Source: Trypanosoma brucei
Lineage: Eukaryota
Reading direction: 5' to 3'
Length of the DNA stretch: 64,000 nucleotides
Assembly: GCA_000002445.1 (NCBI GenBank)
Contig: CH464491.1
Coordinates: 2,976,001-3,040,000 of the forward strand
Below are positions 15,166-62,208 of this stretch, piece after piece. The stretch's first letter is position 1. Every line of letters begins with the position of its first letter. The position numbers and the translations under genes are program-made. The notes beneath the pieces are model-generated. The model was not told where the DNA came from, made no database searches, and saw only the letters and a program-made list of their open reading frames with translations.

Positions 15166-17211
15166 TCAAAAAGTGACAACAAAGATCATAGCAGCAAGCG
15201 CCACATATACGTGCGTTGCGTTATCAATTTGCCCGTTGCTGTGACCCTCCTGTGGTTCATCAACAGCAACTAGAGGTGCCTTTGACGGGCATCTAGGCCA
15301 GTACGTTCGCATGAACATCACTTGGACTTCGGCAAGGGTCAACTCCCTTTTGAAAAGAACAGCACTCTTCACCAGTAGTTTTCCATTGGGAGTAGCTTTC
15401 TTCTCTCCATATCCTCCAATATAGAAATGCATAACATCTCGCACTCGCCTAACAGTCTTGATACCGCTTCCCGTCCTCGAGAAGGCGGCACCATCGATAT
15501 TAACAGTGAACAAACCATTGTACATGGTTATCGTAACTTGGTGAGTCTCGTTGTGGATGGAGGATCCAAATGTAGGCACATGCCGGCCCCCAAACGTTAC
15601 GTACCATTTGTCATCCGATGTGTACGACACTTCAAGACACTCGTCGACACTTCCCTCGCTGATGACAACGCCCACAACCGGGATTTTTTCACTCACTCGG
15701 TCAGGCACCTCCACAGTCACCCCAAGTGTAAATTCATAATTTGCAAAGTTGTAAAGCTGAGCCCCCGTGTGGTTGCTCACAGTCCATGTGGCACCCCGAT
15801 TAGGGCCACTAAATAATATACCATTCAATGTTTTCTTAGCCCCAACAGCTTTGATGCTCACGCTGTTATATGTGTCCTTCCACTGATCACCATCTAAATC
15901 ATTCAAAAAAAGCCCAGCGGGTGCATCATCAACACAGTTTACGCGGTCGGTGGCTCCTCTGGTTCCGGAACGGAGCACACTCTCGGTCCTCCATTTTTCC
16001 ACAACCGCTTTTATCTTTTCGAGTTCATGATCTAAATGCGCAACCTTGCCTATGTCATAGGGTACCGCGTTGCTTACCTCATCATGAAAGGTGCCAGTTT
16101 TTTTGTAGAAGTAAAGCAGTTTGCCGTTGCTGTACAGCAGTGTCCCTTCACCATCTATTCCACCTTCAAGAGTGACGTGACCAATATCAAAAAAATGTTC
16201 GCCATCAGATAGCCAAATATTGAGCCCATCCCCATATGAGTCAGTCGACGGTGCGCGCCGGGTGAAAATCAACAACCTTTTCCCTTCAATTGTGACAACA
16301 AGCAAGTTGTGTGATCCACCTTCGGCTGCACCACTGGCCCACACACGCGAGAACGTCCTCTTGGCTTCCGTCCATTCCCTTCCCATATTGATGGATTCAT
16401 AAACAGCCAAGTGACCGGTATACGAGCCGTTGCTCAACATAAGCCTCCCTCCCCATTCAAAGATGTTGCAATTCTCCTTGCATACATGAGCTTCTAGGGG
16501 TGTCGACTTCCAGTGGATACCGTCGTCCACGGAATAAATTATTGTGGGTACGTCTTCGCTATTCTCGTTCTTTAAACAAACGAGAAATACAAGTAAACCC
16601 CCTTCAGTGACGATTGCATCCCTTCTTCCTCGGAAAAACTTGTTCACTGGCCCCGCTTGAAGTCCAGTGGGGAAGACCCCCTTCAACGGCACCTGTTTGT
16701 TCCACTCTACACCAGCTGATTGCGAAAAAAAACCTCTCGACCTTACAACTTTCCCAGAAATTAGAAGGAGACTATCTTTGCACTCACTTATCGTTACCTT
16801 GCCTAAGCCATCGCCTTGCACATCATACCCGCTTGCAAGCACATACACATTGCTCCCTTTGGCAACTACTTCAAGTGGTATTGGATAGGAAGAATACTCC
16901 ATCTCCTTTCTTCCTTCAATTATGTTGTCCTTTTTCCATGTCCTCCCCCCATCTATGCTCGAAAGTGAAAACGTTCTTAGCCTTACTTCACCAGCCAGGT
17001 GATATCTGAATTCTCCGATTGCAACCAACACACCTTCAGCCTCGACGACGGAATGAATATGTACGGCATCAACGACGGAGAGCAAGAAACTGCCCTTTTC
17101 TTCCCCGTCGAAAAGATCAAATTCATAAACATCCGGTGTCTTAGCAATACTACGTGTCCAGCCGATGTTGCACAGGACAAGTAACAGTAAAATGAGTATT
17201 TGCATTCTCAT
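15166..17211 (-). CDS. Trans-sialidase / sialidase-family surface glycoprotein
   Basis: 681-aa ORF, the only convincing minus-strand gene. N-terminal signal peptide MRMQILILLLLVLC. Three Asp-box motifs S-x-D-x-G-x-T/E-W (SIDGGRTW, SVDDGIHW, SINMGREW). C-terminal lectin-like region and hydrophobic GPI-anchor-type tail (VALAAMIFVVTF). The FRIP-like motif is altered to FRYH. Confidence 0.85.
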   Translation of the reverse strand: MRMQILILLLLVLCNIGWTRSIAKTPDVYEFDLFDGEEKGSFLLSVVDAVHIHSVVEAEGVLVAIGEFRYHLAGEVRLRTFSLSSIDGGRTWKKDNIIEGRKEMEYSSYPIPLEVVAKGSNVYVLASGYDVQGDGLGKVTISECKDSLLLISGKVVRSRGFFSQSAGVEWNKQVPLKGVFPTGLQAGPVNKFFRGRRDAIVTEGGLLVFLVCLKNENSEDVPTIIYSVDDGIHWKSTPLEAHVCKENCNIFEWGGRLMLSNGSYTGHLAVYESINMGREWTEAKRTFSRVWASGAAEGGSHNLLVVTIEGKRLLIFTRRAPSTDSYGDGLNIWLSDGEHFFDIGHVTLEGGIDGEGTLLYSNGKLLYFYKKTGTFHDEVSNAVPYDIGKVAHLDHELEKIKAVVEKWRTESVLRSGTRGATDRVNCVDDAPAGLFLNDLDGDQWKDTYNSVSIKAVGAKKTLNGILFSGPNRGATWTVSNHTGAQLYNFANYEFTLGVTVEVPDRVSEKIPVVGVVISEGSVDECLEVSYTSDDKWYVTFGGRHVPTFGSSIHNETHQVTITMYNGLFTVNIDGAAFSRTGSGIKTVRRVRDVMHFYIGGYGEKKATPNGKLLVKSAVLFKRELTLAEVQVMFMRTYWPRCPSKAPLVAVDEPQEGHSNGQIDNATHVYVALAAMIFVVTF

Positions 17212-41838: not shown

Positions 41839-43815
41839 ATGCCTGACAGCGAGGGTGCAGCTTCCATTCACGATGAGCGTCCTTCTGAAGTTCCAGAGGG
41901 CGGCTCTCCACTCGGTGAAGCAGCTATCACTTCAACGGCTAACGGCCATTCCAAGGTGAAGAGACGACGGATTCTTCAAAGGGAGATAGACAAATTCCGG
42001 CAGCAGAGTATTGAAAACGCGAAACAAACTGTAAGCAGAATAAAGGCGAGCGAAGTCGAGGTGAAGAGACGACGTGAACAGGATGCTGAGACGAGGGCAA
42101 AAAGGGCTGAAGATGTGAAGAAATCTTTGGAGGAGGAGCGTCTTTTTCTACAAAAGGTGCGTGAAAGGGAGGAGCAACGCAAGGTTGCCCAGGTTAAACT
42201 CCTTCGGACAAGCACTCCGCCACGCGAAGAGGTTAGAAGACGTATCGAGGAAGACCGCAGGAAAAACCGAGAGCGTGTACAAGCTGAGAGTGAGAAACTT
42301 CTGGCTGCTGCACGTGAGGAGGAGGAGAGGCGAATGGAGATGATCCTTAAGAGGAAGCAAGAGGAGGAGGAGGCCCCACGGAAACAGCGAAATGCTGAGC
42401 TGGAAAGGAAGGCAAAGGAGCTTGAGAACCTCAAGAAATCGTTGGAAAGGGACCGCCAGGCTATTCGGAAAGCACGTGAGGAGGAGGAGCGACGCAAAGC
42501 GCGGGAGGTGCGGATACTTCGCAGGATTGAAAAAGACTGGTGCGCGGAGGCTGTGAAAGAGTCTTTGGAGCATCGGCGAAAGATCAAAGAGCGTGTACAA
42601 GCTGAGAGTGAGAAACTTCTGGCTGCTGCACGTGAGGAGGAGGAGAGGCGAATGGAGATGATCCTTAAGAGGAAGCAAGGTGAGGAGGATGGCCCACGAC
42701 GGGTGCAAGAGTCTGAGCTTGAGAAGCAAAGGAAGGCAAAGGAGCTTGAGAACCTCAAGAAATCTTTGGAGGAGGAGCGTCTTTTTCTCAGAAAGATGCG
42801 CGAAGAGGAGGAGCAACGCAAGGTTGCCCAGGTTAAACTCCTTCGGACAAGCACTCCGCCACGCGAAGAGGTTAGAAGACGCATCGAGGAAGACCGCAGG
42901 AAAAACCGAGAGCGTGTACAAGCTGAGAGTGAGAAACTTCTGGCTGCTGCACGTGAGGAGGAGGAGAGGCGAAGGAAGATGATCCTTCAGAAAAAACAAG
43001 GGGAGGAGGAGGCCCCACGGAAACAGCGAAACGCTGAGCTGGAAAGGAAGGCAAAGGAGCTTGAGAACCTCAAGAAATCGTTGGAAAGGGACCGCCAGGC
43101 TATTCGGAAAGCACGTGAGGAGGAGGAGCAACGCAAGGTTGCCCAGGTTAAACTCCTTCGGACAAGCACTCCGCCACGCGAAGAGGTTAGAAGACGCATC
43201 GAGGAAGACCGCAGGAAAAACCGAGAGCGTGTACAAGCTGAGAGTGAGAAACTTCTGGCTGCTGCACGTGAGGCAGAGGAGAGGCGAATGGAGATGATCC
43301 TTAAGAGGAAGCAAGGTGAGGAGGATGGCCCACGACGGGTGCAAGAGTCTGAGCTTGAGAAGCAAAGGAAGGCAAAGGAGCTTGAGAACCTCAAGAGGCG
43401 TCTGGAGAAGGATCGTCTTGCCCTGCAGAAGATTCGTAAGGAGGACGACAGCGTTGACGAGACCGCATTGGCGGAGAATGGAATCGTGGAACTGCTTGAA
43501 GTCGCCCACGCTGTCGTCGAGGAAGGGGAAAAGGTTCTGCTGCAAAGAAAGCATACCACCAGGGAGGCCAGCACGCCGAGGCGCATGGAAGTGGAGAAGA
43601 AGAAAGCGAAGGCAGTGGAGGATATAAAGAAAGCCCTTGAGGAAGAGCGCTTGGCTCGGCAGAAGGAACGTGAGCAGGAGGTCCAACGCAAGGCGGAGCA
43701 GGTTCGACTGTTACGCGAGAAGATGAAGCAGCGACGCGAGGACCTGCTGAGGGCGCAGGAGGAAAAAAGGAAAAAGGCAGCTGAGGGCATTTGGGAGTTC
43801 GTGCCCGTTTCGTAG
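41839..43815 (+). CDS. Highly charged coiled-coil repeat protein (E/R/K-rich), cytoskeleton/MAP-like
   Basis: 658-aa ORF containing about 3.3 tandem copies of a 106-aa unit (..EERLFLRKMREEEEQRKVAQVKLLRTSTPPREEVRRRIEEDRRKNRERVQAESEKLLAAAREEEERR..KAKELENLKKSL). Confidence 0.7.
   Translation: MPDSEGAASIHDERPSEVPEGGSPLGEAAITSTANGHSKVKRRRILQREIDKFRQQSIENAKQTVSRIKASEVEVKRRREQDAETRAKRAEDVKKSLEEERLFLQKVREREEQRKVAQVKLLRTSTPPREEVRRRIEEDRRKNRERVQAESEKLLAAAREEEERRMEMILKRKQEEEEAPRKQRNAELERKAKELENLKKSLERDRQAIRKAREEEERRKAREVRILRRIEKDWCAEAVKESLEHRRKIKERVQAESEKLLAAAREEEERRMEMILKRKQGEEDGPRRVQESELEKQRKAKELENLKKSLEEERLFLRKMREEEEQRKVAQVKLLRTSTPPREEVRRRIEEDRRKNRERVQAESEKLLAAAREEEERRRKMILQKKQGEEEAPRKQRNAELERKAKELENLKKSLERDRQAIRKAREEEEQRKVAQVKLLRTSTPPREEVRRRIEEDRRKNRERVQAESEKLLAAAREAEERRMEMILKRKQGEEDGPRRVQESELEKQRKAKELENLKRRLEKDRLALQKIRKEDDSVDETALAENGIVELLEVAHAVVEEGEKVLLQRKHTTREASTPRRMEVEKKKAKAVEDIKKALEEERLARQKEREQEVQRKAEQVRLLREKMKQRREDLLRAQEEKRKKAAEGIWEFVPVS
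42125..43440 (+). repeat. Intragenic tandem repeat, 318-bp period, about 3-4 copies with variant sub-units
   Basis: The string aaggttgcccaggttaaactccttcggacaagcactccgccacgcgaagaggttagaagacg recurs at 42181, 42821 and 43139. Flanking half-units recur at 42560-42760 and 43240-43400. Confidence 0.85.
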
Positions 43816-45927
43816 AATATCTTCCGTTCGTACTCTCGTGAATGTTGGGACACTTTCTCGTTTTATTTTTGCTTTTTCTACTTGCTTTATCCACACTTTC
43901 TTTCCATGGGTGGATATTCCTTTTTATTTTTGTGCGGTGGTCTAAAAAGATGCTGAGTGGGAAAAGTTGCTGTTATTACTGAAAGTATATGTTTATGTTG
44001 AAACAAAAAAAAAAGAGGCAACAATTAAAATGTCTCATTTTTTCCATGAAGGCCTCTTTTACGAGAAGAAAGGATATATAACTGGCGGTTGAGGTCGTGT
44101 GCCTCAACCCCGGACGGTTTCTGTTTTTTGTTTTTAATCCCTTTTTGGTCACCAACGTGATCATTGTATCTGCTCGTCGTTGGTGCCGTGGTGATAAAAG
44201 TACGTTTAGGTGATGCGAAGCACGATGTAGGGAAGATGTGGTGGTGGCTGCGCTTGTATATGGACGTTGGGTTGAGGTTTTGCCGAATATACATATTTTT
44301 TTTTTCTACCGTTGCCCCCCCCCTCCCCACCACTTCTGAAATATTGGGAAGGCGAAAGTGTGAAGTGTTTGAGAAGTGGAGGATTGTGCCATGGCAGGCT
44401 TGTAATTTTGCGGTAGCCACGGCAGGTGAGTTGCTGCTGTGGGCGTGGGCGTGGGCGTGTGTATGTTGCTCGTACAATTGTTCTCTTGTTATTTTACGTG
44501 AGAGCATCTGCAGAGCACTAGCTCACGTCCAACCTTCTTCACTCCATGTAATGCTTAAGTTTTAATTTCACTCCTTTTTCTTTGTCAAAACCTACCCTGT
44601 TTTCACACGTCTTTACGCATCTCTTCCTTCTTTTCGAATTCGGTGTAATTTGTCTGTGTTGCTGTTTTACCTTCTTTTGGGGAATAACTTCTCAAATAAC
44701 TAAACAGGGAAGGAGGAGACGACATGAGGAAAGAACTCTGCAGGGCAAATGTGTAGAATCTCTGTTATACGTACGCCAAAAGACTTGTTCGTACAGAGCC
44801 AGAGGGGGTGATGATAAATTTTCTTGAAGATAGAGGAGAGTTAATGCATTTTTCATCTCATCCCTTTCCTTTTTCATCCCTCGTTTTTCCTCCTATTTGA
44901 TGTTTTCCTCCGCGGTGTTTCCGTAGCCGAACATGTCGTGTGGTGTGTGAAGGGGTGCGATCCTTTTCCCCATCATCAACAATGAAACAAGAGGAATGTG
45001 AAAAAGATAGGTGAAAGAACAGAGAGGAAAAGGGTGAGAAAACTGTGAGGGGGGGCCGTTTGGGCCAAGCAGCCCGTCTCATCGTGCCTTTCATACCTAT
45101 CGAATGTGGTGGTGTACCCCCTATCTTTTCTGTTTCTGTAAGGGGAATCTGACGGTACCCCTCTCTCTCTCTGTATGTGTGTGTGTAATTTCCTTTTGCC
45201 CTGCTTCCTGAGCCACAGCGGCCTCGAGGTGTAACTGAGCGTGATGTCTCTGCCTTCCCCTAGGCGGGGTCGGATGTAACTTTATGTGGAGAAAGAGATA
45301 GCCGATCGACTGATTTTGAAAGAAAAGAAGCCTTACCTCCATGTCTCGGAATTAGGGATGTGCCTGTACACGTATCTATGTATTTAAATGTAGTTGTGTT
45401 TAACATGGAGGGAAGAAAAGGAGGGAACAATGAAAGGACAGCAGACGGTGAGGGTAATGTGACACAATGTGATTGTAGGCACTCACTTGTACGGTAAGTG
45501 GAAGTGTTAGGTAGCAGATACGGATAAACATTTGCTGCCGGAGGAAGCAGTTTGGGGTTGTGGTGACTTTTCTTCTTTCTTTCTATTTTTTCTCTATTTT
45601 GCTGTTGTGGTTGTCAATGAAAAATGGTAGGAGAAGGTGCCGCTGCGCGCACTTTTTTGTTTCTCTTGTTATTTGGCTTTCAGATTTTATACCATATCTG
45701 TACTCTCACTGCAGCGGTTGCCTGTATTCTGTTGCACACCCTGTGGCACAAAGTCGCCCAAAACAACGGGAAACATTGCTTTGTGCATGCTACGGACGGG
45801 TAAAGTTTCGATAATACCATTTCGTACCTCACTGTTCCGTAAGCTTCAGGCACAGCCACCAGGATATTTGACACCTATCATTTTTTTATATTTCTTTTTT
45901 TTTTCCAATTTCAAAAGCGTCAACTTC

Positions 45928-48030
45928 ATGAGGAATGCGATGGCGGATGCGACGAGCAGCCACTTGGAAGGACCCACCACTCTTGTGTTTGTCTATGGTA
46001 CTCTCCAGCGTGGAGAGAACAACTACCCCTGGTGGTTGGCCAACCCACGGCATGCCGCCTTCATTACTGTGGCGATAACTAGGAGGCGGTATCCATTATT
46101 TGTCAACCTGCTTCCTGGGAGCAGTTCCTGTTCGCCCTGTTTACTCAACCTTCCGGAAGAAGGGGAGGAAGATTTTCCCGAAGGTAGTTTTGCAGGTGTT
46201 GATAGTGACGGTCGTGTGACGGCGCATCATGTCGTGGGTGAATTGTTTGCGGTCACGGAAACTATGAAACGGTGGCTTGATGTGCTGGAGGACGTGGAAA
46301 CAGGGTTATATAGCGTTGGTACCATAGATGTTGTTCCCCTCGGCAACGCGCAGTTTGTAGAGAGAGTACTGCTTGTCGGGGAGGGCGAGGCGATACGTGC
46401 GCTGGTTTACTTCCGTGAAAGGGATTATTCAGAGGACTGGAGGAGCCCTAGTCCCAAGTGCGGCTCGACGTTGTTGAGGCGATTTTCAGCATCGGAATGC
46501 GTGCGGATTTATGGTCACCGTTTCACTGGGTCGCCTGCCCACCTCCGGGGGGCGGTGGGGTTGAGGGAAGGCCTTGAGCGGATTGGTCACCGGAGTCCCA
46601 CAGCTACCCCCGTCAACCCGAAGCCCATCGTACTATTCATTATTGACGGGATTGGGGACGTCTCATATCCGGGGTTGGGTCATCGCACCCCTCTTGAGGT
46701 CGTCTCCGGTTGTCCCTCCCGTGGCGAGGGTAGTGGCGGCACTGGTCAAGGCGACGATGAAACATTCGATAAATTTGTAGCCCCTGGAATCAATGTGGTG
46801 ACACGACATGGTGTCAGTGGTGTCATGGATGTTTTTGAAGCTGGTGTCACTTGCGGCAGCGATACGGCACACTTGTCAATTTTCGGCTATCCCCCCCAGC
46901 AGTATTACAGGGGTCGCGGAGCATATGAAGCCTTGGGAGCGGGGTTGCACCTCGATGAGGGTGATATCGCCTTCAAATGTAATTTTTCTGTTTTAGATGA
47001 GAAGACAGGCATCGTGCTGAAGCGGCGCTGCGATCGCGACTTCACACGTGAGGGACCAATTCTTTGCGAGTTCCTTGACGGTCTGGTCGTTGAAGTCGAG
47101 CCCGAACACGAGATAGGCGAAGTGAAGACCCACACGCTGAAGGTGCGCTACGCGACAGAGCACCGCTGCGGTGTGGCCATCACTGGTAACGGCCTCTCAC
47201 ATAAGATCACAGGGACAGATCCTCTCGCTGATGATCGTCCGCTGCTTCACTGCAAACCGACTGTGTCACCTGGCCACGAGGAGTACGAGGCGGCACTTTA
47301 CACTAGCCGTGTTGTCAATGCGGCATCGGAGCGTGTGAACGAGTTACTGCGGTGCCACCCAATTAACGAAACCCGGCGCGTAGAAGGGAAACAAGTTGCA
47401 AATATTGTTCTTTTCCGCGGTGCCTCAAACAAGGGATGGGTTCCACCGTTTACGGTACGCCATGGACTTAACGGCTTCATCGTGAGTCCCACATGCATCA
47501 TAAAAGGATTAGGCATCTGTTGTGGACTAAGCTCCGTGGATGCGGAGGGGGCTACTGGCGATTGGGACACAAATGTCAACGCCAAAGTGGATGCCGTACT
47601 AAAGGAACTGGGAGTTGCGAATTTGTTGGAGAAAGGTAGCGGTGATAATACCGAAGAAATCACTGCATCTCCATACAATTTTGCTGTGCTCCATGTGAAG
47701 GGTGTCGATGACGCTGGGCATGAGTGCAGTTTAACGCACAAATTGGTGATGCTGAAGAAGTGTGGTGATGCCATGCAGCGGTTGTGGGATGCCCTTCCGA
47801 CCGGAAGCACAATGGTAGTGTTGGCAGACCATTCCACACCAATTTCGCTAGGGGACCACAGCTGTGAACCGGTGCCCGTTTCTCTGGCAACTAAGGGGTC
47901 TGAAATCACGGATGGTGTGCAGTTCTATAGCGAGGTCGAATGTGTTGCAGGAGCTCTCGGACGGTTCCGCGGTGAGGTTCTAATGGACGTTGTCAAGCGT
48001 GCGCACCATTGGTATCACTACCGCCAGTAA
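45928..48030 (+). CDS. Fusion protein: N-terminal GGCT/AIG2-like domain plus C-terminal archaeal-type cofactor-independent phosphoglycerate-mutase-like (ApgM / alkaline-phosphatase-superfamily metalloenzyme) domain
   Basis: N-terminus has TLVFVYGTLQRGENNYPWW (YGTL..G..N motif of gamma-glutamyl cyclotransferase-like proteins). The C-terminal two thirds has IVLFIIDGIGDVSYPGLGHRTPLEV and VVLADHSTPISLGDHS, matching the ApgM-type ..DG.GD.. and ADHSTP signatures. The ORF track starts at 45637; the start chosen here is the Met after the polypyrimidine tract. Confidence 0.6.
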   Translation: MRNAMADATSSHLEGPTTLVFVYGTLQRGENNYPWWLANPRHAAFITVAITRRRYPLFVNLLPGSSSCSPCLLNLPEEGEEDFPEGSFAGVDSDGRVTAHHVVGELFAVTETMKRWLDVLEDVETGLYSVGTIDVVPLGNAQFVERVLLVGEGEAIRALVYFRERDYSEDWRSPSPKCGSTLLRRFSASECVRIYGHRFTGSPAHLRGAVGLREGLERIGHRSPTATPVNPKPIVLFIIDGIGDVSYPGLGHRTPLEVVSGCPSRGEGSGGTGQGDDETFDKFVAPGINVVTRHGVSGVMDVFEAGVTCGSDTAHLSIFGYPPQQYYRGRGAYEALGAGLHLDEGDIAFKCNFSVLDEKTGIVLKRRCDRDFTREGPILCEFLDGLVVEVEPEHEIGEVKTHTLKVRYATEHRCGVAITGNGLSHKITGTDPLADDRPLLHCKPTVSPGHEEYEAALYTSRVVNAASERVNELLRCHPINETRRVEGKQVANIVLFRGASNKGWVPPFTVRHGLNGFIVSPTCIIKGLGICCGLSSVDAEGATGDWDTNVNAKVDAVLKELGVANLLEKGSGDNTEEITASPYNFAVLHVKGVDDAGHECSLTHKLVMLKKCGDAMQRLWDALPTGSTMVVLADHSTPISLGDHSCEPVPVSLATKGSEITDGVQFYSEVECVAGALGRFRGEVLMDVVKRAHHWYHYRQ

Positions 48031-48601
48031 CGGTGCAGCTGCCACAACTAATAAGCATGCGGGGGAAGAAAAATTTTCTTCTTGTGGATGCTTATCGGAT
48101 GCTCATCGCACACCGTTGGAAGAGTCAGGGTCGCTGGGGCGGTGCCTCCCGTGTAACTTCCACCGCGAGTCGGTTCCTCGTATATGCACTCGTAAATACG
48201 CTTTCTGTACTGTTTCCCCCTGAATCAGCACCTGTAAGTACTGTAGTTACCGCCATCTGCCGTCTTCTTTTTCTTATTTCGTGTGACTACTGATGTTTCC
48301 AGCCGGGGGCAACGAGCTTGCTTATATTTTTTTTTGCCAGGAGACTCTTCAGTAGGGGCGAAGGTTAATCAGGTATAGGAAAGAGAAAGCATATATTCCC
48401 TATCTGTTGTTTTGTACTCGATTCCGTGCCGAAGGTGCTAGCAAACTTTAAGTAAAGCGCGCACTGGTGCTGTTTGCTCCTTTGCCCTCGCGGCCGACGT
48501 CACCGTAATAGGAACTGCCCAGGAAGGAGCAGAGATCGGCCTGGGAAGCGTCAAAATCCCAACCCCAGCGGACTGTTTGCCGAGATGTAAACAACTCTGC
48601 G

Positions 48602-50392
48602 GTGGCAGGGGATGAGGAAGATGGGGGCGAGGAGGTTGGCGGAGATGGCAGTAGTGGTAGTAGAGACAGTAGTTATAATCAACCGCCTAATACTATTATG
48701 AACGATCTGTCCGCAGTCGGCGACCGCAGCAGCAGCGCAGTGACGGAAGGTAGTGCAATCTCTAGTGGCTCTGGTGGCACCGCGGCGGCTACAAGCAGCG
48801 ATTGTACTCCAACCACCTCCCGTGCTCGAAGTGTGGTTCAGGAGCAGCTGTCTCGGACAACTTCACTTCTTGAAGATGTCCATCCGTGTGTGCAGGCAAC
48901 TGGTGGTGACCTTGGTAAGGACTCGACGAGTGACCTGGGTTGCCCCTATGCGGTTACAGTCGGAAGGACGCCCCACCGGGAGCTGGGGCCGCCCCCCTCA
49001 GGGGGGGGTTCGGCGACGACGCTAAACACTGGGAATTCTGAAGTCCCTGCGGCGACGCATCTCCCCCAACAAGGCGGGGAGCATGAGCTGAACCTCGATG
49101 CGTGCATTCATCCCAAACAAGTGGCCTTTCTCACTGGAATCGGGGAAATGGTACGGCAGCATGCTCGTCAGCACAGGCAGCAGAACCGCGCCACCAGGAG
49201 ACGTGACGACGCCTCGGCATGCAGCAGCTCCTGTTCCGACACAGAACGTCATGCAGCCCGACTTTCTGTTGGAGCACTGATTAGCGCTGAAGGACAGCGC
49301 GTTCGCATGCATCTTGTGCAGGCAGCAGCTTCGGCGTCGTCATCTGGTTGCCAAGCGGACAGCAGTAGCTCCGAAAAACGGAGTTGCGAGGGAATTTGTG
49401 GCCGCTATCAGACAGCCTTCAGTCTTTGCACAATTATTTCTGCCTTTCAACCCCGTAAGGCTTCCTATTGGCAGGATGACCACCTTGTGGAGCCCTATCA
49501 CGGCGAAAGTTATGGACCCATTGCACAGCGCTCTCGTTTCAATAAAAGCGATGACAACAGCGTTAGTGGGGAAAGGGACGATGATGTTAACAGAAGTGGT
49601 CCCGCGGCCGACGGTGGCCTTCTGTGCAATGCCGCGTCCTCCGCGGAGAACGGCGACTATAACGATGAGAACTTTGAACCAGCAGACGGCGCACCGAGCG
49701 ATGTTGCGGATGATGATCGTGCGATGAGATCCTACGGCAAGATGCTGATCCACAATGGTTGTCGCAGCGACAATGTCTTTAGTGACGCCTTTTTCCTCGA
49801 TAAGGGCAACATTACCGGTGGAGAGCGACGCAAGAAGCTGATCGTTTTGCACTCCTACCGTGCCTCTGTTATCTCTTTTGTTGACAAAAAAGTTCTGAAG
49901 AAGGACATCAACAATCACTTCTACGTTCAGCACCCAGAGTTGGAGGTTCGTGAAATCAAGCTAACTCACATGCGAGCTATACGCACGGATTTGCTGAATC
50001 TCGCGTTGGAAGAGAATTCTCCAGTTGAATTAGCCACCGTGGCGTATGCAAACTGGTACTTTGAGCGGCTTATCATGCGCGGAATGGTTGGTAAGCGGAA
50101 CCGTCGTCTTGCGCTTGCCGTCTGTCTTTTGTTGGCAATCAAATTTGTCGAGACAGGTGATGTACACCGCAAGATACAGTATCTGAAGGCGCGCATTCGG
50201 CACGACGACGCATTCAAGGGGGTGACGTGGCAGAAAACACAAGAGTGGGAGTTCTGTGCGTACGTTGGGCTCGAGTTTACACTTCTTCCTTCCCCCGGAA
50301 ACCGTGTTGTCGAAACTCACCTGGAGCGGTTACTTGCTCAAGTGAACTTGACATCCCAAGAGTATTACAGTAAGAAGTTTGCGTGGCCCTAA
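48602..50392 (+). CDS. Cyclin-fold protein (PHO80-like cyclin domain at C-terminus) with long low-complexity N-terminal extension
   Basis: 596-aa ORF. The C-terminal about 200 aa (LATVAYANWYFERLIMRGMVGKRNRRLALAVCLLLAIKFVETGDV...) fits a cyclin box. The N-terminal 350 aa is S/G/A/D-rich low complexity. Confidence 0.5.
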   Translation: MAGDEEDGGEEVGGDGSSGSRDSSYNQPPNTIMNDLSAVGDRSSSAVTEGSAISSGSGGTAAATSSDCTPTTSRARSVVQEQLSRTTSLLEDVHPCVQATGGDLGKDSTSDLGCPYAVTVGRTPHRELGPPPSGGGSATTLNTGNSEVPAATHLPQQGGEHELNLDACIHPKQVAFLTGIGEMVRQHARQHRQQNRATRRRDDASACSSSCSDTERHAARLSVGALISAEGQRVRMHLVQAAASASSSGCQADSSSSEKRSCEGICGRYQTAFSLCTIISAFQPRKASYWQDDHLVEPYHGESYGPIAQRSRFNKSDDNSVSGERDDDVNRSGPAADGGLLCNAASSAENGDYNDENFEPADGAPSDVADDDRAMRSYGKMLIHNGCRSDNVFSDAFFLDKGNITGGERRKKLIVLHSYRASVISFVDKKVLKKDINNHFYVQHPELEVREIKLTHMRAIRTDLLNLALEENSPVELATVAYANWYFERLIMRGMVGKRNRRLALAVCLLLAIKFVETGDVHRKIQYLKARIRHDDAFKGVTWQKTQEWEFCAYVGLEFTLLPSPGNRVVETHLERLLAQVNLTSQEYYSKKFAWP

Positions 50393-53095: not shown

Positions 53096-53752
53096 ATGTC
53101 TGAGTTCCAAAGGTTTGTTAAGCTTCTTGAGCAGACAGATGGCCGCGACAAGATTCTAAAGGCATTTTCTGGTGTCTTTAAGGCACTTGGCTCCCTCGAC
53201 ACCTGTCAGAGCCGCTCAAGTGCGTTTGGCGCCGTCGGGAAGTCTATTGGAGACGCCCGTTGTCTCCTTCGTATGGCGAAGTGGGTGGGTGATGTGCCCA
53301 AGATGCAGAATACCATTCAGGATTGCAGGGCAAAGGGCAAGGTCAACATGAAAGAGGTCTTGAAGTTCCTCCGCGTGCTGTGCAACTTCCTCTATGTGCT
53401 CGGCGACAATGTGGCCTTCGTCGCCCGCTACAATTTGTTGGCTTTGCGGCACAAGAGCATCCACCTAAAGGCAAAAACAGCGCAATTCTGGGGATTCTTC
53501 CTTGCCGCTGTGCTTGATGTTGTTGCCCTTTACGGTGCGCTTCAGAAGCGTGCGAGTGACCCCGCCACAAGCAAGAAGGAGATGAAGGCAGCACTTATCA
53601 GTTTCGTAAAGGATGCCTCGGACACCCTCGTAACAATGGCCTTTGTTGGTTACCTCCGTGAAGTCTGGCGACCCAGCGCGACAACTTCTGGAGCTCTCAC
53701 TGCAGTTGCTGGTGGTGTTGCAACGTATTTGAACTGGAACAAGATCAAATAG
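53096..53752 (+). CDS. PEX11: Peroxin-11 (PEX11) family glycosomal/peroxisomal membrane protein
   Basis: 218-aa ORF with an N-terminal amphipathic region containing the PEX11-family motif ..LEQTDGRDKILKAF.., then two predicted membrane-associated helices. The size matches PEX11. Confidence 0.65.
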   Translation: MSEFQRFVKLLEQTDGRDKILKAFSGVFKALGSLDTCQSRSSAFGAVGKSIGDARCLLRMAKWVGDVPKMQNTIQDCRAKGKVNMKEVLKFLRVLCNFLYVLGDNVAFVARYNLLALRHKSIHLKAKTAQFWGFFLAAVLDVVALYGALQKRASDPATSKKEMKAALISFVKDASDTLVTMAFVGYLREVWRPSATTSGALTAVAGGVATYLNWNKIK

Positions 53753-55504: not shown

Positions 55505-57340
55505 GTGGATGCGAGAGGTTGCGCAATGGCGTCGTTAGCAGCAAAAAAAGACGGAGGTGACATCAATGGGGGCCCGTCTGAGGAAGAGGATCAGCTCCAA
55601 CAACTCTTAGGGACTTCTTGTTGTGTTAATCTCAGCGACTCCACGGTGAAGCGTGGTTTTCTGTTGGAAGTGCGATACCTCTGGCTGCCCAGGTTGCTAA
55701 GTGGTAACGGCACTACTGGTGTAGCTCCACAACTCTATGGGTTTGTGCGCATAAAGGACGCGGACCACCGTATTAGTGGCTGGTTCCCCATTGACTGTAT
55801 TGACCTTAAGGAAACTGGAGGGGCTAATGGAGCTACGAGTTGCGGCAGCAGCTACCCTACGAACAGCGCAGCTTACAACTCAATGGTGGTAGCAAAGAGC
55901 AAAATCACGCATCCCATAATTAGTCCGGTATACCGGGAGGTTACACCGGGAATGGTACGGACCCGCCGTGAGGGGAAGCAGCTCGACTTCTTTGAGGAAC
56001 GCCTCCTCCGCGACTGCCGGACTCCCACCACAGTGCGATACTTCATATACCTGTGTAAGTTTGCCTTTCCTCCCTGGTACTATGCGCCTTATGGTATGCT
56101 GAATCGCGAATACGATCCTTTAGCACCTTTAAGCGACGCAGAGCGGGAGGCGTTGCGTTTCACTGAGGGGAGCACCAATGAAAGCATTGATACTAACCCT
56201 TTCATTCGAGATGCTTACCTTTGCCCGTTCTCCCTCCGTATATATAGTACCTTCGAGCAGATGCAGCACGAAACCCTAAGATATCGCGCTGGTCACTTGC
56301 ACCCCCCCGGACTTGAGATTTATCGGGACGACACCCGTGGGTTTTCCATGTTCGAGGTGAATGGGAGTCGTCACGTCACGTACTGCCGTCACTTGTTCTT
56401 GTTAGGGAAGTCGTTCCTTGAGAACAAGTTGGCCGGACATGACGTACACAACTACTACTTTTATGTTGTGTGCCTTCATCATCGGCACTATCCACACTAC
56501 ACGGATGACACCTCCGCTATGTATTTTGTTGGGTATTTCACATGGGAGAAGCAGGTGACTGACAACAATCTGGCATGCATCGTCACTTTACCATACTTTA
56601 TGGGTGGGGGAGCCTCATCGGGACAACAGAATGACTTAAGCGATGATCGCGGCCCAGTTGGGGCAGACACTGCCTCCCGTGAAGGGGACACACCCAAATT
56701 AGGTCATTTTGGGCAATTCATGATCGCTGCGAGCTACGAACTGGCTTACAGGAGGAAGAATGTTGGCTCCCCAGAAAAACCACTCACAGACTTGGGAGCA
56801 GCTGCCTACGACCGCTACTGGAAACGTGTTCTCATAAAGTGGATGCACACGTTACTGGAGGGTAACGCCGCAGCAATTACCGTTGACGACGACGCCGGTG
56901 ATGATGGTCAGTCTGTAACGATTGTGGTGGCCCATGAGAACGAGGCGAAAATGGCGGCCCCGGGGGCCTTAAAGCGACCGCGTCCCGGCACCACTGATGG
57001 GAGCGGCTGCGCGGAGGCGGTGCGGGGTGCACGTGTGGCCGAGGGAGACACCCTGGTGGACACAACCGTTCGGAGTATAGCCAAGCAAGTACGGTTGGAA
57101 GAGGCGGATGTGCTGCGAACTTTGTTACAAATGGGTGTTCTTCACCTTAATGCAGAGGATAGAAGTATGCGCGTCGTCATCCCCGTCTCTTTTGTCAACA
57201 GAGAGTACGGTAAAATGAAAAAGTGGGCACATGACATGACGCGCGCTGAATTTGACCCCAAACTGCTCACTGGCCGTGGCGGGCCTGCCTGGCTTGTTAA
57301 CACACCATCGCCGCGTCGGCACAATCAGCACCAGAGCTGA
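55505..57340 (+). CDS. MYST-family histone acetyltransferase
   Basis: 611-aa ORF. MYST catalytic core: FEVNGSRHVTYCRHLFLLGKSFLENK, active-site region GYFTWEKQV...LACIVTLPYFMGGG, acetyl-CoA binding region PLTDLGAAAYDRYWKRVL. A C2HC-type zinc-finger region lies upstream (YLCKFAFPPWYYAPYGM). The start may be the Met at 55526. Confidence 0.85.
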   Translation: MDARGCAMASLAAKKDGGDINGGPSEEEDQLQQLLGTSCCVNLSDSTVKRGFLLEVRYLWLPRLLSGNGTTGVAPQLYGFVRIKDADHRISGWFPIDCIDLKETGGANGATSCGSSYPTNSAAYNSMVVAKSKITHPIISPVYREVTPGMVRTRREGKQLDFFEERLLRDCRTPTTVRYFIYLCKFAFPPWYYAPYGMLNREYDPLAPLSDAEREALRFTEGSTNESIDTNPFIRDAYLCPFSLRIYSTFEQMQHETLRYRAGHLHPPGLEIYRDDTRGFSMFEVNGSRHVTYCRHLFLLGKSFLENKLAGHDVHNYYFYVVCLHHRHYPHYTDDTSAMYFVGYFTWEKQVTDNNLACIVTLPYFMGGGASSGQQNDLSDDRGPVGADTASREGDTPKLGHFGQFMIAASYELAYRRKNVGSPEKPLTDLGAAAYDRYWKRVLIKWMHTLLEGNAAAITVDDDAGDDGQSVTIVVAHENEAKMAAPGALKRPRPGTTDGSGCAEAVRGARVAEGDTLVDTTVRSIAKQVRLEEADVLRTLLQMGVLHLNAEDRSMRVVIPVSFVNREYGKMKKWAHDMTRAEFDPKLLTGRGGPAWLVNTPSPRRHNQHQS

Positions 57341-57933
57341 TGTGTCGTCCCTCCCACAATATAAATGGTCTTTTATTTCTAACTTACCTTTCCCAGAGTC
57401 AGTGCTTCTGCGGTTTCTGTCTTACTCGTGGGTGTATGACTGCCTCTGTGTGACCTCCATTTCCCACACAAATTATTGCGGCTGCGTTGCACCCCTTTTA
57501 TAAATTACATTTATGCCATCCGTGTCCTTCTTTTTATCAATGTCCCTACCTCACTCTTCTATTCACTATTGTTTCATTCCTTGCGGTAGCATCGTCAGAT
57601 TTTGCACTAGTGTAAAAAGAAAAATAACACAAATTTATTACCGGCAAGAAGGCTTACAAAATCCGGTGCACACCGCTTCTTAATTAAAAAAAATACTCAT
57701 ATAGATATATCCAGAGGGGTTCTACGAACCATACACATCATATACACAACCCTCATCAGTATAAACAAAAAAATTACTAAGAACCAACCGAAACAGAGTT
57801 ACTACGTCAGACATAAATATTCAGACAAAGTACCACATTAAGTGTTGGGAGTGCTCAGTTGGGGAGGCAACTGAGTTTCTTCCAGCCGTGTGACGCGTGG
57901 GAGGAGGAAATCGGAACCGGGCCCGAAAGCACA

Positions 57934-60900
57934 ATGTCGGGTCGCACCGTTGAGGAAATATACCAAAAGAAAACGCAGCATGAACATATCCTTGCCCGAC
58001 CTGATATGTACATTGGTACAATCGAGCCTGTAACGGAGGATGTGTGGGTGTACGACGAGGCGGACAATGTGATGAAGCTACGGAAATGCACATGGACACC
58101 TGGTCTGTATAAAATATTCGACGAGATACTCGTTAATGCTGCAGACAATAAGGTACGTGATCCCCATGGGCAGACGACCATCAAAGTGTGGGTTGATGCC
58201 GCGAGGGGACTAGTGCGTGTGTACAACAATGGTGAGGGTATTCCCGTACAACGCCACCGGGAGCATGACTTATGGGTACCAGAGATGATATTTGGTCACC
58301 TGCTGACTTCGTCAAATTACGATGACACAGAGGCAAAGGTGACGGGTGGGAGGAACGGGTTTGGTGCGAAGCTGACGAACGTGTTTTCCACACGCTTTGA
58401 GGTGGAAACAGTTCACTCCCGGTCGCGTAAGAAGTTCTTTATGCGGTGGCGAAATAACATGCTGGAGAACGAGGAGGCTGTAATCACCCCTTGTGATGGT
58501 CCTGACTATACTGTTGTGACTTTCTACCCGGACTTCGAGAAGTTCAATTTGGAAGGTTTCACGGAGGACATGGTTCTCATCATGCAGCGTCGTGTGTATG
58601 ATATAGCAGGCTGCACAGACAAGTCGTTGTGCTGCTACCTTAATGATACACGGATTGCATGCAGGTCCTTTCCCGAGTACGTAGATTTATATCCCACGAT
58701 GGGTGAGGAACGTAAACCTTCTAGCTACTCCCGAGTAAATGACCGATGGGAAGTTTGTGTGCGTGTCTCAAATGTTGGGTTCCAGCAGGTGAGCTTCGTC
58801 AATTCGATTGCAACGACACGTGGCGGGACGCACGTGAAGTACATCGTGGATCAGATTATTGCTAAGGTGACAGATCAAGCGATGCGTAAAAGCAAGACGG
58901 AGGTGAAACCACACATGATCCGACCGCATCTTTTCATTTTCGTCAATTCACTAATTGAGAACCCCAGTTTTGATTCCCAAACAAAGGAGACGCTGAACAC
59001 ACCTAAAGCACGCTTCGGTTCTACTTGTGATCTCCCTGCGTCTTTGATTGACTGCGTGCTGAAGTCGAGTATCGTGGAGCGTGCGGTGGAGATGGCGAAC
59101 AGCAGACTGAACCGTGAGATGGCCATGAAAATGCGCAACACGAATCGTAAACAGATATTGGGAATACCTAAGTTGGACGATGCGAATGAAGCTGGTGGAA
59201 AGTACAGCCAACGTTGCACCCTGATACTTACTGAGGGAGATTCCGCCAAGGCTCTCTGTACTGCTGGGCTGGCTGTTGAAAATAGAGACTATTTCGGTGT
59301 CTTCCCCTTGCGCGGTAAGCCACTCAATGTTCGTGATGCTTCAGTAAAGAAAGTGATGGGATGTGCTGAATTTCAAGCGGTAAGTAAGATCATGGGCCTT
59401 GATCTCAGCCAGAAGTATACGAGCACCGAAGGACTGCGGTATGGGCACCTGATGATTATGTCTGATCAGGATCACGATGGGTCACACATTAAGGGTCTCA
59501 TCATCAATATGATTCATAATTATTGGCCTGACCTGCTGAAAGTGCCTGGCTTCCTCCAGCAGTTCATAACTCCCATTGTGAAGGCGCGCAAGAAGGGAAG
59601 AGGGAACAATGACGAAGGTACTATTTCCTTCTTTTCCATGCCTGACTATTTTGAGTGGAAAAATGCGGTTGGTGAGGGCATCAAGAATTATGAGCTGAGG
59701 TATTACAAGGGTCTTGGTACCTCCGGTGCAAAGGAGGGTCGTGAGTACTTTGAGAACATTGACCGTCACCGACTAAACTTTGTATATGAAGATAGAAAGG
59801 ACGATGATGACATTGTGATGGCCTTCGCGAAGGACAAGGTTGACGAGCGTAAGCGGTGGATTACCGAATTTAAGGCAAATACGAACATTAATGAGTCCAT
59901 GAACTATAACGTCCGGAACGTATCCTACTCTGAATTTGTTCACAAAGAGCTTATTCTTTTCTCTGTCGCAGATTGTGAGCGGTCTATTCCCAGTGTTGTG
60001 GATGGTTTAAAACCTGGGCAGCGGAAGATAATGTTTTCAGCGTTTAAGCGTAATCTTGTTCGATCGCTTAAGGTGGCTCAGCTTGCTGGTTACGTCTCAG
60101 AGCACGCTGCATATCACCACGGCGAGCAGTCATTGGTTCAAACCATTGTTGGACTTGCACAGGATTACGTGGGTGCAAACAATGTCCCACTCCTCTACCG
60201 TGATGGTCAATTTGGTACAAGACTACAGGGAGGTAAGGACCATGCTGCGGGACGTTACATTTTCACCCGTCTCACTGACATTGCGCGTCGCATTTACCAT
60301 CCCTCCGATGATTTTATTGTAGAATACAGGGATGACGATGGTCTTTCTGTGGAACCTTTTTACTATGTTCCTGTGATTCCTATGGTGCTTGTGAACGGGA
60401 CTGCTGGTATTGGCACTGGTTTTGCTACGAACATACCCAACTATTCTCCCCTTGATGTCATTGACAACCTAAACCGTCTGCTCTCTGGGGAGGAATTGCA
60501 ACCAATGAAACCATGGTATTTTGGATTCACCGGTACGATTGAGGAACGGGAGAAGGGTAAATTTGTGTCGTCTGGGTGTGCGACTGTGCGTCCTGATGGG
60601 GTGGTACACATCACGGAGCTTCCTATCGGCACGTGGACGCAGCAATATAAGAAGTTCTTGGAGGACCTTCGTGAACGCGAGATTGTTATACAGTACCGTG
60701 AGCACAATACAGATGTGACAGTTGACTTCGAAGTGTTCATTCATCCTGAAGTGCTGCGGCAGTGGGTAGCACAGGGGTGTGTGGAGGAACGTTTGCAGCT
60801 ACGGGAATACATCCATGCGACGAACATCATTGCATTTGACCGAGAAGGGAAGATTACGAAATACCTTGATGCTGAGTCTGTACTGAAGGAGTTCTACCTG

Positions 60901-62208
60901 GTTCGTCTCGAGTACTACGCTCGCCGTCGTGAGTTCTTGCTGGAGCAATTGCAACGCGCGGCACTCAAGCTTGAGAATATGGTTCGTTTTGTGAATGAGG
61001 TTATTGATGGCACATTTATTGTTACACGGAGGAGCATGAAGGATGTGTTGAAGGACTTAAAGCAACGTGGATACACTCCCTTCCCCCCGCAGCAAAAGAA
61101 GAAGATGAGCTCCACCACTATCGTTGATGAGGAGGATAACGATGGTGCGCGTAAAATATTACCCGATGTTTTTGAGTTTGAAAGTGTTCCGTTGTGCGAG
61201 CAAGTAATTGGAAAAATCTTATGCACAGCTGAGCCGGAAGAGATTAATATGTGGAAAGGGGTCTTAGTTGAATACGACTACCTGCTCAGTCTAAGGATGG
61301 TGGACTTAACAGTGGAAATGGCTATGTACTTTCGTACAAAGAGGGAACAAATGCTGAATAAGCATAATTTTGTGCTGTCTGCTTCCTCGAAGGACTTGTG
61401 GCGTGAGGACTTGGATCTCCTGCGGTCCGATATTGAAAAACTTTTTGACGAACGGAGAAGAGAGATTGCGCTGATCCAATGTAAGAAACTTGAGAAGAGG
61501 CAGTTTTTTGATGTTTCGCGGTTGCGTGTACCTCTGCTGTCGGATGCGGCGCGGAAAGCTGATCGTAGTTTAGCACTTCGACAGTCGAACTGTAAGCGTG
61601 AAATGTCTAGCAAATGTGCCAGTGAAAGTTTTGCCCTTTTGGTCGATGCGGGTGTTCGGGTTAGCGGGTTAACTGAAGGTTCTTCGATCTGTGATATAAA
61701 CGAGGCAAGGAGGAAATATGGACACTCAGTCGCTGGAGGTAAAAGGAGGTTGGTGCGTCATGATGAGGTTAGTAAGCGTGGGAAATTTTCTTCCTGTGGG
61801 GATCAAAGACATGTTTCCCTTTCAGATGGCTCTGATACGGATGATTGTAGCATTGGGGCGCCGAGTGTTTCACCCTCCGATGCGACCCCGGCGACTCAAA
61901 AATCGAGGAAAATATCCGATTCTTCTTATGGGTTCGGTATCGAGGGCGAAGTGGATATATTTTTTGAAGATACCGTCGGGGAAGATTTTTCGGAGCCAGC
62001 GACGCAGGCTAACATTGTGCGTTCCAAGTCAGAATCACCAGTCCTCGACTTTTCAGCAGAATATGCAACCGAACCAAAAAGCAGGAAACGACCCCGTAGC
62101 ATTGAGGACAACGATGAAAACACGTGTCCCTTTTACGTTGACGTGGTTGGTGAAGACGTGGAATATGACTCAGATCAATGCATTGGGTTTGATGCCTGCG
62201 TATTTTGA
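57934..62208 (+). CDS. TOP2: DNA topoisomerase II, nuclear type
   Basis: About 1424 aa starting at MSGRTVEEIYQKKTQHEHILARPDMYIGTIEP. GHKL ATPase motifs (EILVNAADN, GRNGFGAKL), TOPRIM (LTEGDSAK, IMSDQDHDGSHIKGL), and the active-site Tyr region of the breakage-reunion domain. The long acidic/Ser-rich C-terminal tail is typical of nuclear isoforms. The ORF track begins at 57859, but the alignment-consistent start is 57934. Confidence 0.95.
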   Translation: MSGRTVEEIYQKKTQHEHILARPDMYIGTIEPVTEDVWVYDEADNVMKLRKCTWTPGLYKIFDEILVNAADNKVRDPHGQTTIKVWVDAARGLVRVYNNGEGIPVQRHREHDLWVPEMIFGHLLTSSNYDDTEAKVTGGRNGFGAKLTNVFSTRFEVETVHSRSRKKFFMRWRNNMLENEEAVITPCDGPDYTVVTFYPDFEKFNLEGFTEDMVLIMQRRVYDIAGCTDKSLCCYLNDTRIACRSFPEYVDLYPTMGEERKPSSYSRVNDRWEVCVRVSNVGFQQVSFVNSIATTRGGTHVKYIVDQIIAKVTDQAMRKSKTEVKPHMIRPHLFIFVNSLIENPSFDSQTKETLNTPKARFGSTCDLPASLIDCVLKSSIVERAVEMANSRLNREMAMKMRNTNRKQILGIPKLDDANEAGGKYSQRCTLILTEGDSAKALCTAGLAVENRDYFGVFPLRGKPLNVRDASVKKVMGCAEFQAVSKIMGLDLSQKYTSTEGLRYGHLMIMSDQDHDGSHIKGLIINMIHNYWPDLLKVPGFLQQFITPIVKARKKGRGNNDEGTISFFSMPDYFEWKNAVGEGIKNYELRYYKGLGTSGAKEGREYFENIDRHRLNFVYEDRKDDDDIVMAFAKDKVDERKRWITEFKANTNINESMNYNVRNVSYSEFVHKELILFSVADCERSIPSVVDGLKPGQRKIMFSAFKRNLVRSLKVAQLAGYVSEHAAYHHGEQSLVQTIVGLAQDYVGANNVPLLYRDGQFGTRLQGGKDHAAGRYIFTRLTDIARRIYHPSDDFIVEYRDDDGLSVEPFYYVPVIPMVLVNGTAGIGTGFATNIPNYSPLDVIDNLNRLLSGEELQPMKPWYFGFTGTIEEREKGKFVSSGCATVRPDGVVHITELPIGTWTQQYKKFLEDLREREIVIQYREHNTDVTVDFEVFIHPEVLRQWVAQGCVEERLQLREYIHATNIIAFDREGKITKYLDAESVLKEFYLVRLEYYARRREFLLEQLQRAALKLENMVRFVNEVIDGTFIVTRRSMKDVLKDLKQRGYTPFPPQQKKKMSSTTIVDEEDNDGARKILPDVFEFESVPLCEQVIGKILCTAEPEEINMWKGVLVEYDYLLSLRMVDLTVEMAMYFRTKREQMLNKHNFVLSASSKDLWREDLDLLRSDIEKLFDERRREIALIQCKKLEKRQFFDVSRLRVPLLSDAARKADRSLALRQSNCKREMSSKCASESFALLVDAGVRVSGLTEGSSICDINEARRKYGHSVAGGKRRLVRHDEVSKRGKFSSCGDQRHVSLSDGSDTDDCSIGAPSVSPSDATPATQKSRKISDSSYGFGIEGEVDIFFEDTVGEDFSEPATQANIVRSKSESPVLDFSAEYATEPKSRKRPRSIEDNDENTCPFYVDVVGEDVEYDSDQCIGFDACVF

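Follow-up and report, generated by a model that had tools for sequence, protein, structure and literature searches.

What does a domain with a gamma-glutamyl cyclotransferase fold do at the amino-terminus of a phosphomutase? The question is raised by an open reading frame (ORF) in a stretch of Trypanosoma brucei DNA (contig CH464491.1) that was analyzed at its full length of 64,000 nt, here called the window; all nucleotide coordinates below refer to window positions. The original prediction had read the ORF as a fusion of a cyclotransferase-like domain with an archaeal-type phosphomutase (ApgM), and had taken the fusion to suggest a coupled two-step reaction. The reading that we favor, with somewhat better than even confidence, is that a single gene encodes a mutase of the ApgM type with a predicted complete catalytic site, joined to a GGACT-derived N-terminal domain that would serve as an accessory module.

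The plus strand is open from 45637 to 48030. Counted from the ATG at 45928, the gene comprises 700 codons and ends with the stop codon at 48028-48030. Its 700-residue product is identical to SCU68759.1/XP_067079852.1 and shares 99% identity with CBH18171 of T. b. gambiense. The gene itself is therefore no discovery: it is already annotated in genomes of the T. brucei group, public databases list its name and its Pfam domains, and both domains are named in one Leishmania record. What it represents is a fusion, specific to one lineage, of two enzyme families that are both known. A Pfam scan recovered all three families proposed for the protein above their gathering scores, namely GGACT (PF06094, residues 20-171, E 2.9e-9, 38 bits against a gathering cutoff of 22.8), Metalloenzyme (PF01676, residues 232-687, E 1.4e-22) and, nested in the latter, PhosphMutase (PF10143, residues 293-480, E 1.8e-43).

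The mutase region extends over about 470 C-terminal residues (232-700). The DG.GD and ADHSTP signatures on which its assignment to the ApgM-like enzymes had been based are present as IIDGIGD (residues 238-244) and LADHSTP (residues 632-638). A phmmer search of the PDB sequences (E <= 0.01) returned only three entries, all of them archaeal cofactor-independent phosphoglycerate mutases (PGMs) of the ApgM type, with 2ZKT as the best match (E 3e-50); no GpmI chain was found among matches at this threshold. An AlphaFold model built from 48 sequences had a mean predicted local distance difference test score (pLDDT) of 84 and a predicted template modeling score (pTM) of 0.82. In Foldseek, its C-terminal part matched 2ZKT with a template modeling (TM) score of 0.88 and E 8e-32. 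Archaeal ApgM (P. horikoshii PH0037, 2ZKT; T. acidophilum 3KD8/3IDD) has the same fold, composed of PF01676 and PF10143, and identical GSDTAHLS, DxxGH and DHSTP...H motifs; structure-based identity is about 26%, and the fusion protein differs by lineage-specific insertions and about 230 extra N-terminal residues. The GpmI-type cofactor-independent enzyme (iPGAM; T. brucei 3NVL, L. mexicana 3IGY) belongs to the same superfamily and shares the metal and phospho-serine chemistry, but its domain organization is different, and 3NVL reached a TM score of only 0.30 with 11% identity. The protein is thus a second member of the superfamily, distinct from the glycolytic iPGAM, as had been anticipated.

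Conservation was surveyed in 25 kinetoplastid-type fusion sequences and 23 plant, fungal or algal ApgM-like sequences (48 in total). Seven residues (D240, S311, D594, H598, D634, H635 and H644) were invariant in all of them. By homology within the superfamily, we take the Asp and His residues to be the ligands of a binuclear metal center and S311 to be the nucleophile. The mutase would then work via a phospho-serine intermediate at S311, held by the six ligands, and would most likely share the reaction of the stand-alone eukaryotic and archaeal ApgM enzymes, taken to be the interconversion of 3-phosphoglycerate and 2-phosphoglycerate.

In plants, Mucoromycota and an alga, ApgM-like proteins (P0030, P0034 and P0098, among others) stand alone, without a GGACT domain, and their catalytic residues are identical to those of the fusion. 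More broadly, 38 key mutase residues were the same in the 25 and the 23 sequences, except for D595N in four Leishmania sequences and R367K in two non-kinetoplastid ones. Among columns conserved to at least 90% in both groups, 122 were identical and 7 were clade-specific fixed differences, 5 of these conservative. With so many shared columns against so few differences, the alignments indicate that the fusion did not remodel the mutase domain. The Gly-rich, acidic insertion at residues 260-284, which splits the hidden Markov model (HMM) matches, is longer in Leishmania and absent from bodonid-type sequences.

Among the NCBIfam models, the best match of the domain was to the ApgM model PRK04024 (315-318 bits), with 279-282 bits for TIGR00306. 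TIGR02535, the model for a proposed ApgM-like homoserine kinase, reached 184-187 bits against its cutoff of 446, and the PhpG model about 180 bits. Both are far below the ApgM models, and a homoserine-kinase identity was rejected on the TIGR02535 score.

A broader form of this idea holds that the C-terminal domain and its stand-alone relatives in plants and fungi are some other phosphotransferase of the ApgM family, candidates being a phosphatase, a PhpG-like transferase and a kinase-like enzyme, the proposed homoserine kinase for one. It is the strongest of the alternatives, and we give it perhaps one chance in four. Models of family members with other activities (TIGR02535, NF038358) do match significantly, albeit more weakly; kinetoplastids and plants already have a GpmI-type iPGAM (PMC2964296); and all eukaryotic sequences tested fall below the ApgM equivalog cutoff of 489 bits. 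However, the ApgM models always score best (315 bits compared with 184 for the homoserine-kinase type), the solved structures nearest to the domain are those of archaeal cofactor-independent PGMs, and a published phylogeny places eukaryotic APGM as the sister group of Asgard archaeal APGM and treats the two as isofunctional (PMC11976288). Most likely, the mutase domain has the same reaction as stand-alone eukaryotic ApgM, presumably the interconversion of the two phosphoglycerates, which was shown for archaeal ApgM in work cited in PMC2964296.

The N-terminal domain spans about residues 17-172. Its assignment to the cyclotransferase-like fold stood, whereas the predicted size of about 120 residues proved too small; the domain has about 155, owing to a Trypanosoma-specific acidic insertion of 25 residues (approximately 76-100) within it. 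A profile of 13 orthologous N-terminal regions, compared with the PDB, matched human GGACT (3JUB) over nearly its full length with E 1.2e-16, but GGCT proper merely with E 0.04. Foldseek comparison of the N-terminal part of the model gave TM scores of 0.75 for 1VKB and 0.79 for 3JUB (mouse/human GGACT), and pLDDT values in the domain core were mostly above 80. Human and mouse GGACT (A2LD1; 3JUB, 3JUC, 1VKB) are hence the nearest solved relatives. They are stand-alone proteins of about 150 residues, without the acidic insertion, and have the YGTL motif, the Glu and the pocket Tyr in common with the T. brucei domain.

For the active site, we used the published GGACT residue set (PMC2954230) as the reference. 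The substrate-binding loop is part of the motif YGTLQRGENN (residues 23-32), E121 lies in exactly the column in which the sequences of 3JUB and 3JUD (E82Q) differ, and Tyr127 and Tyr161 align with Y88 and Y119 of human GGACT. As judged by this alignment, the T. brucei N-domain keeps the full catalytic set, which comprises every residue that would be required for the release of 5-oxoproline from an L-gamma-glutamyl-amine. Cyclotransferase activity on L-gamma-glutamyl-amines may therefore still be present in T. brucei.

The same cannot be said of the whole clade. At the position of the catalytic Glu, 18 of the 25 kinetoplastid-type sequences, including all bodonid-type ones, have Glu. The residue is replaced by Gln in L. 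martiniquensis, L. orientalis and L. utingensis, by Lys in Porcisia hertigi, by Leu in L. tarentolae, by His in one Trypanosoma sequence (P0006) and by Tyr in P0029, the fusion that diverges most. In L. major, L. tarentolae and Porcisia, Cys or His takes the place of the first Tyr of the YGTL motif. The fusion clade differs from GGACT in that each of these two positions is replaced in several lineages.

Selection on the N-domain was assessed by the Nei-Gojobori method on genomic coding sequences of four Leishmaniinae species, three of which do not have the catalytic Glu. The ratio of nonsynonymous to synonymous substitution rates (dN/dS) was 0.11-0.23 in the core of the N-domain, compared with 0.12-0.18 in the mutase domain, and these ranges include pairs in which both members are without the Glu. 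Within Leishmaniinae, amino acid identities were 81-88% for the core and 81-90% for the mutase domain. The N-domain in Leishmaniinae is under purifying selection despite the loss of the Glu. Since the Glu is replaced in 7 of the 25 sequences and the domain is still under selection, the role that is conserved across the clade probably does not depend on cyclotransferase chemistry, and the N-domain probably does not provide a second, obligatory step of catalysis. More probably, it acts as an accessory module that binds a gamma-glutamyl or 5-oxoproline-like ligand, supports the structure of the mutase or regulates it. What is new is this comparative evidence for a dispensable GGACT active site in a domain that is retained under selection.

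The divergent fusion P0029 (L074, 1637-3703) is only 34% identical to the window protein. It has ADTL in place of YGTL, and its mutase site is fully intact. By its sequence, it is an independent case of the asymmetry seen in Leishmaniinae, with a degenerate GGACT site beside an intact mutase site.

A precedent for non-catalytic use of this fold comes from Paulinella, where part 2 of the chromatophore transit peptide is a GGCT-fold N-terminal module with a replaced catalytic Glu (bioRxiv 10.1101/2025.01.15.633182). As in the fusion protein, the module lies N-terminal to enzymes to which it is unrelated. The lineage is a different one, however, the purpose there is import, and the kinetoplastid fusion keeps the Glu in most species.

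Retention of the N-domain might alternatively be explained by two enzymes that work independently on one chain, a housekeeping GGACT that degrades gamma-glutamyl-amines being fused to ApgM for co-expression only. We consider this unlikely. It would fit with the complete catalytic set in T. brucei and with the observation that no stand-alone trypanosomatid GGACT was among the 120 best N-domain relatives listed. The latter point is weak, because the search scored 8000 word-sharing candidates and missed the fusion proteins themselves. Moreover, loss of the Glu in several Leishmaniinae together with a maintained dN/dS of about 0.15 is not what would be expected of a housekeeping GGACT, and the linker between the domains is itself conserved.

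How widely the architecture occurs was addressed by an exhaustive HMM search with the N-domain profile against 1.84 billion cluster representatives. Seven matches were below 1e-30, six GGACT-ApgM fusions and one tandem GGACT. Beyond these came a steep drop in score, down to GGACT-like proteins of about 180 residues that stand alone. The fusion was found in every kinetoplastid sampled, Bodo saltans included, and in a few environmental relatives; among the proteins scanned from this search, it was not found outside kinetoplastid-type proteins. The architecture is thus as unusual as had been supposed. Two of the fusions (P0022, 1193 residues, and P0124, 1234 residues) are longer, with several hundred residues inserted in the mutase domain. 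GGACT domains also occur in other combinations (P0227, P0265, P0133, P0278), namely with D123/ATP-grasp (R2K), with a PCC domain (PF03479) and as GGACT-GGACT tandems. The pairing with ATP-grasp resembles a combination of a ligase and a remover of gamma-glutamyl groups.

With regard to origin, the nearest non-fusion relatives of the N-domain, among the 120 best listed, were GGACTs of animals, plants and oomycetes or other protists and a stand-alone Euglena gracilis transcript; by this comparison, the N-domain descends from the eukaryotic GGACT clade. The closest unfused relatives of the mutase domain were plant, Mucoromycota and algal proteins with 42-45% identity. Eukaryotic APGM, in addition to its placement beside Asgard archaeal APGM, has been traced to the last eukaryotic common ancestor, with a single Asgard-derived source inferred and patchy retention since (PMC11976288). 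The simplest history consistent with these relationships would be that two pre-existing eukaryotic genes fused on the kinetoplastid stem.

This distribution bears on the coupled two-step enzyme that had been suggested from the fusion, in which a single metabolite with both a gamma-glutamyl amide and a phosphate would be processed first by the cyclotransferase and then by the phosphomutase or phosphatase, with channeling between the sites. The fusion is old and shared by all kinetoplastids, T. brucei, like most lineages, has both active sites complete, the pTM of the model suggests a compact body of two domains, and other GGACT fusions have chemically related partners, such as the D123/ATP-grasp ligases. 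Even so, we regard the coupled reaction as improbable, and the suggestion does not hold up well, although it may still apply to lineages with the Glu. Seven of 25 sequences have Q, K, L, H or Y instead of the catalytic Glu under persisting purifying selection, the mutase is essentially unchanged relative to unfused homologues, and no ApgM neighbor was found within 6 kb at any of 73 bacterial GGACT-like loci (737 kb in total, best E 0.22; a sample without archaea). We know of no metabolite that would fit such a reaction.

More speculatively still, the GGACT-fold domain could sense or process a kinetoplastid-specific gamma-glutamyl-amine, such as a polyamine- or trypanothione-related conjugate, and thereby gate or feed the ApgM domain. 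If this rather remote idea were true, the fusion would physically link gamma-glutamyl and polyamine-thiol metabolism to phosphoglycerate metabolism, in kinetoplastids only and not in the host.

All of these readings presuppose that the two domains belong to one gene, as had been predicted, and this part of the prediction is well supported. There is no in-frame stop codon between the domains. Met is absent between residues 113 and 300, so that a separately translated mutase would be without its first metal ligand, D240. Polypyrimidine tracts flank the ORF (45564-45590 and 45878-45906 upstream, 48256-48280 downstream), and none lies within it. The continuous architecture and the linker motif LLxxFSA...YGxRF..LPAHLR recur in Trypanosoma, Leishmania, Leptomonas, Lotmaria, Novymonas, Angomonas, Bodo saltans and several further assemblies, with P203, H205 and P228 invariant in 24 of 25 sequences. 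The linker has predicted helices at residues 188-198, 204-207 and 209-218, where pLDDT is moderate. In the AlphaFold model, the two domains form a compact body, and the pTM suggests a defined arrangement of the domains. That two adjacent genes were misread as one ORF is very hard to believe, even though trypanosomatid gene models are ORF-based, which calls for general caution, and the TREU927 model (747 residues) has a different 5' end: the frame is unbroken and the linker conserved in every species from Bodo to Leishmania, and the ORF features and the model speak against it as well, so that we rejected this explanation.

Several observations weigh against a complete ApgM-type mutase with an accessory N-domain. 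The mutase domain scores below both NCBIfam ApgM cutoffs (279-282 bits against 320 for the TIGR00306 subfamily, 315-318 against 489 for the PRK04024 equivalog), so that functional equivalence to ApgM is not established; the unfused homologues from fungi, plants and algae score above the subfamily cutoff (331-372 bits) and miss only the equivalog cutoff. T. brucei does not survive RNA interference against the GpmI-type iPGAM. The fusion protein can therefore be no simple substitute for the glycolytic enzyme, so that it may have another substrate, compartment or expression pattern. The Glu is kept in 18 of 25 sequences, and cyclotransferase activity may thus be relevant in most lineages, T. brucei included. 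Finally, we found no biochemical, localization or knock-down data on the fusion gene or its orthologues in the literature.

The gene model differs between records at the 5' end. The TREU927 model begins at an in-frame upstream ATG at 45787. The 47 extra residues (45787-45927) consist of a basic, presequence-like start, MLRTGKVSIIPFRTSLFRKL, followed by a polypyrimidine tract translated as FLYFFFFSNF. No counterpart of this extension was present in any orthologue compared, in which only 5-25 residues precede the first strand of the GGACT fold in the alignment. Since the extension crosses a polypyrimidine tract and has no orthologous counterpart, the start codon is more likely, from the sequence, to be at 45928 (or 45940) than at 45787, and the extension is probably 5' untranslated or intergenic sequence. 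Coordinates are collected in Table 1.

Table 1. Window coordinates of the fusion gene, its domains and motifs, and neighboring genes.
Feature	Position	Strand	Basis
Candidate splice-leader acceptor region: polypyrimidine tract 45878-45906, then first AG 45916-45917, 11 nt before the ATG	45878..45917	+	inferred from sequence
Complete coding sequence of the GGACT-ApgM fusion protein (700 codons + stop)	45928..48030	+	ORF and database identity
GGACT/AIG2-like cyclotransferase-fold domain, residues 20-171	45985..46440	+	Pfam PF06094, profile against PDB, Foldseek
YGTL substrate-binding loop, Y23-L26	45994..46005	+	aligns with GGACT Y7-L10 (PMC2954230)
E121, counterpart of human GGACT catalytic Glu82	46288..46290	+	profile alignment
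Conserved inter-domain linker, residues 172-231 (~60 residues)	46441..46620	+	alignment of orthologues
ApgM-type metalloenzyme phosphomutase (alkaline-phosphatase superfamily), residues 232-687	46621..47988	+	Pfam, NCBIfam, PDB, Foldseek
DGIGD motif (D240-D244), first metal-ligand Asp	46645..46659	+	invariant in 48 aligned eukaryotic sequences
Gly/acidic insertion specific to trypanosomatids, residues 260-284, separating the DGIGD strand from the remainder of the core	46705..46779	+	alignment
Inserted PhosphMutase (transferase/cap) sub-domain, residues 293-480	46804..47367	+	Pfam PF10143
GSDTAH motif with S311, predicted phospho-serine nucleophile	46855..46872	+	invariant; same motif in P. horikoshii ApgM
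DDAGH motif (D594, H598), predicted metal ligands	47707..47721	+	D594 and H598 invariant
DHSTPISLGDH (D634, H635, H644), predicted metal ligands	47827..47859	+	invariant; aligned to 2ZKT DHSTP...HS
CABLES-like cyclin-box gene, downstream neighbor	48602-50392		
PEX11 gene	53096-53752		
MOZ/SAS acetyltransferase gene	55505-57340		
Topoisomerase II gene	57859-62208		

At the other end of the protein, the C-terminal tail (residues 690-700, 47995-48027) reads KRAHHWYHYRQ and is rich in His and Tyr. An H-x-x-Y-H-Y motif is kept at trypanosomatid C-termini and is absent from bodonid-type and plant or fungal sequences. Judged by eye, the terminal HYRQ does not resemble a type 1 peroxisomal targeting signal.

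The fusion gene is probably Tb927.11.11490, because the cyclin-box gene downstream of it fits the published description of Tb927.11.11500 as a CABLES-like cyclin-box protein (PMC7876812). An ORF without a Pfam match at 41839-43815 encodes 658 residues, has 66% purines on its coding strand and is overlapped by long, spurious antisense ORFs; its product is rich in Glu, Arg and Lys and resembles a coiled coil. By position, this ORF may be Tb927.11.11480, which is listed among quorum-sensing pathway genes (PMC8789148). Elsewhere in the window, 2365-3321 and 3670-4626 are tandem duplicate WD40 genes, apparently RACK1/TRACK-like, with a repeat unit of 1305 bp; the two coding sequences (957 nt each) differ at one nucleotide. 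The minus strand carries a trans-sialidase-like gene (BNR_3 and a trans-sialidase C-terminal domain) at 15166-17211, almost all other long ORFs of the window being on the plus strand. A shift in composition at about 8-12 kb, with an AT skew of up to 0.24, suggests a strand-switch or insertion region.

Our literature search found no description or experimental study of a GGACT-ApgM fusion and no mention of Tb927.11.11490. For the stand-alone eukaryotic ApgM-like proteins, no characterization was found either, and At3g30841, which we take to be the Arabidopsis ApgM-like homologue, was met only in incidental mentions. The "phosphoglycerate mutase-like" protein of PMC5098729 has the unrelated His-phosphatase fold.

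Nothing that we found shows the fusion gene to be essential or chemically unusual. Its interest lies in part in the organisms that carry it, as kinetoplastids include major pathogens of humans and animals, and their carbon metabolism is a long-standing field of drug-target research. Without a human homologue and combined with a GGACT-like domain, this ApgM-type protein could prove to be an enzyme or regulatory node specific to the parasites. The fusion also offers a test case for the re-use of a catalytic domain as a non-catalytic module, for which E121Q and S311A would be informative mutants.

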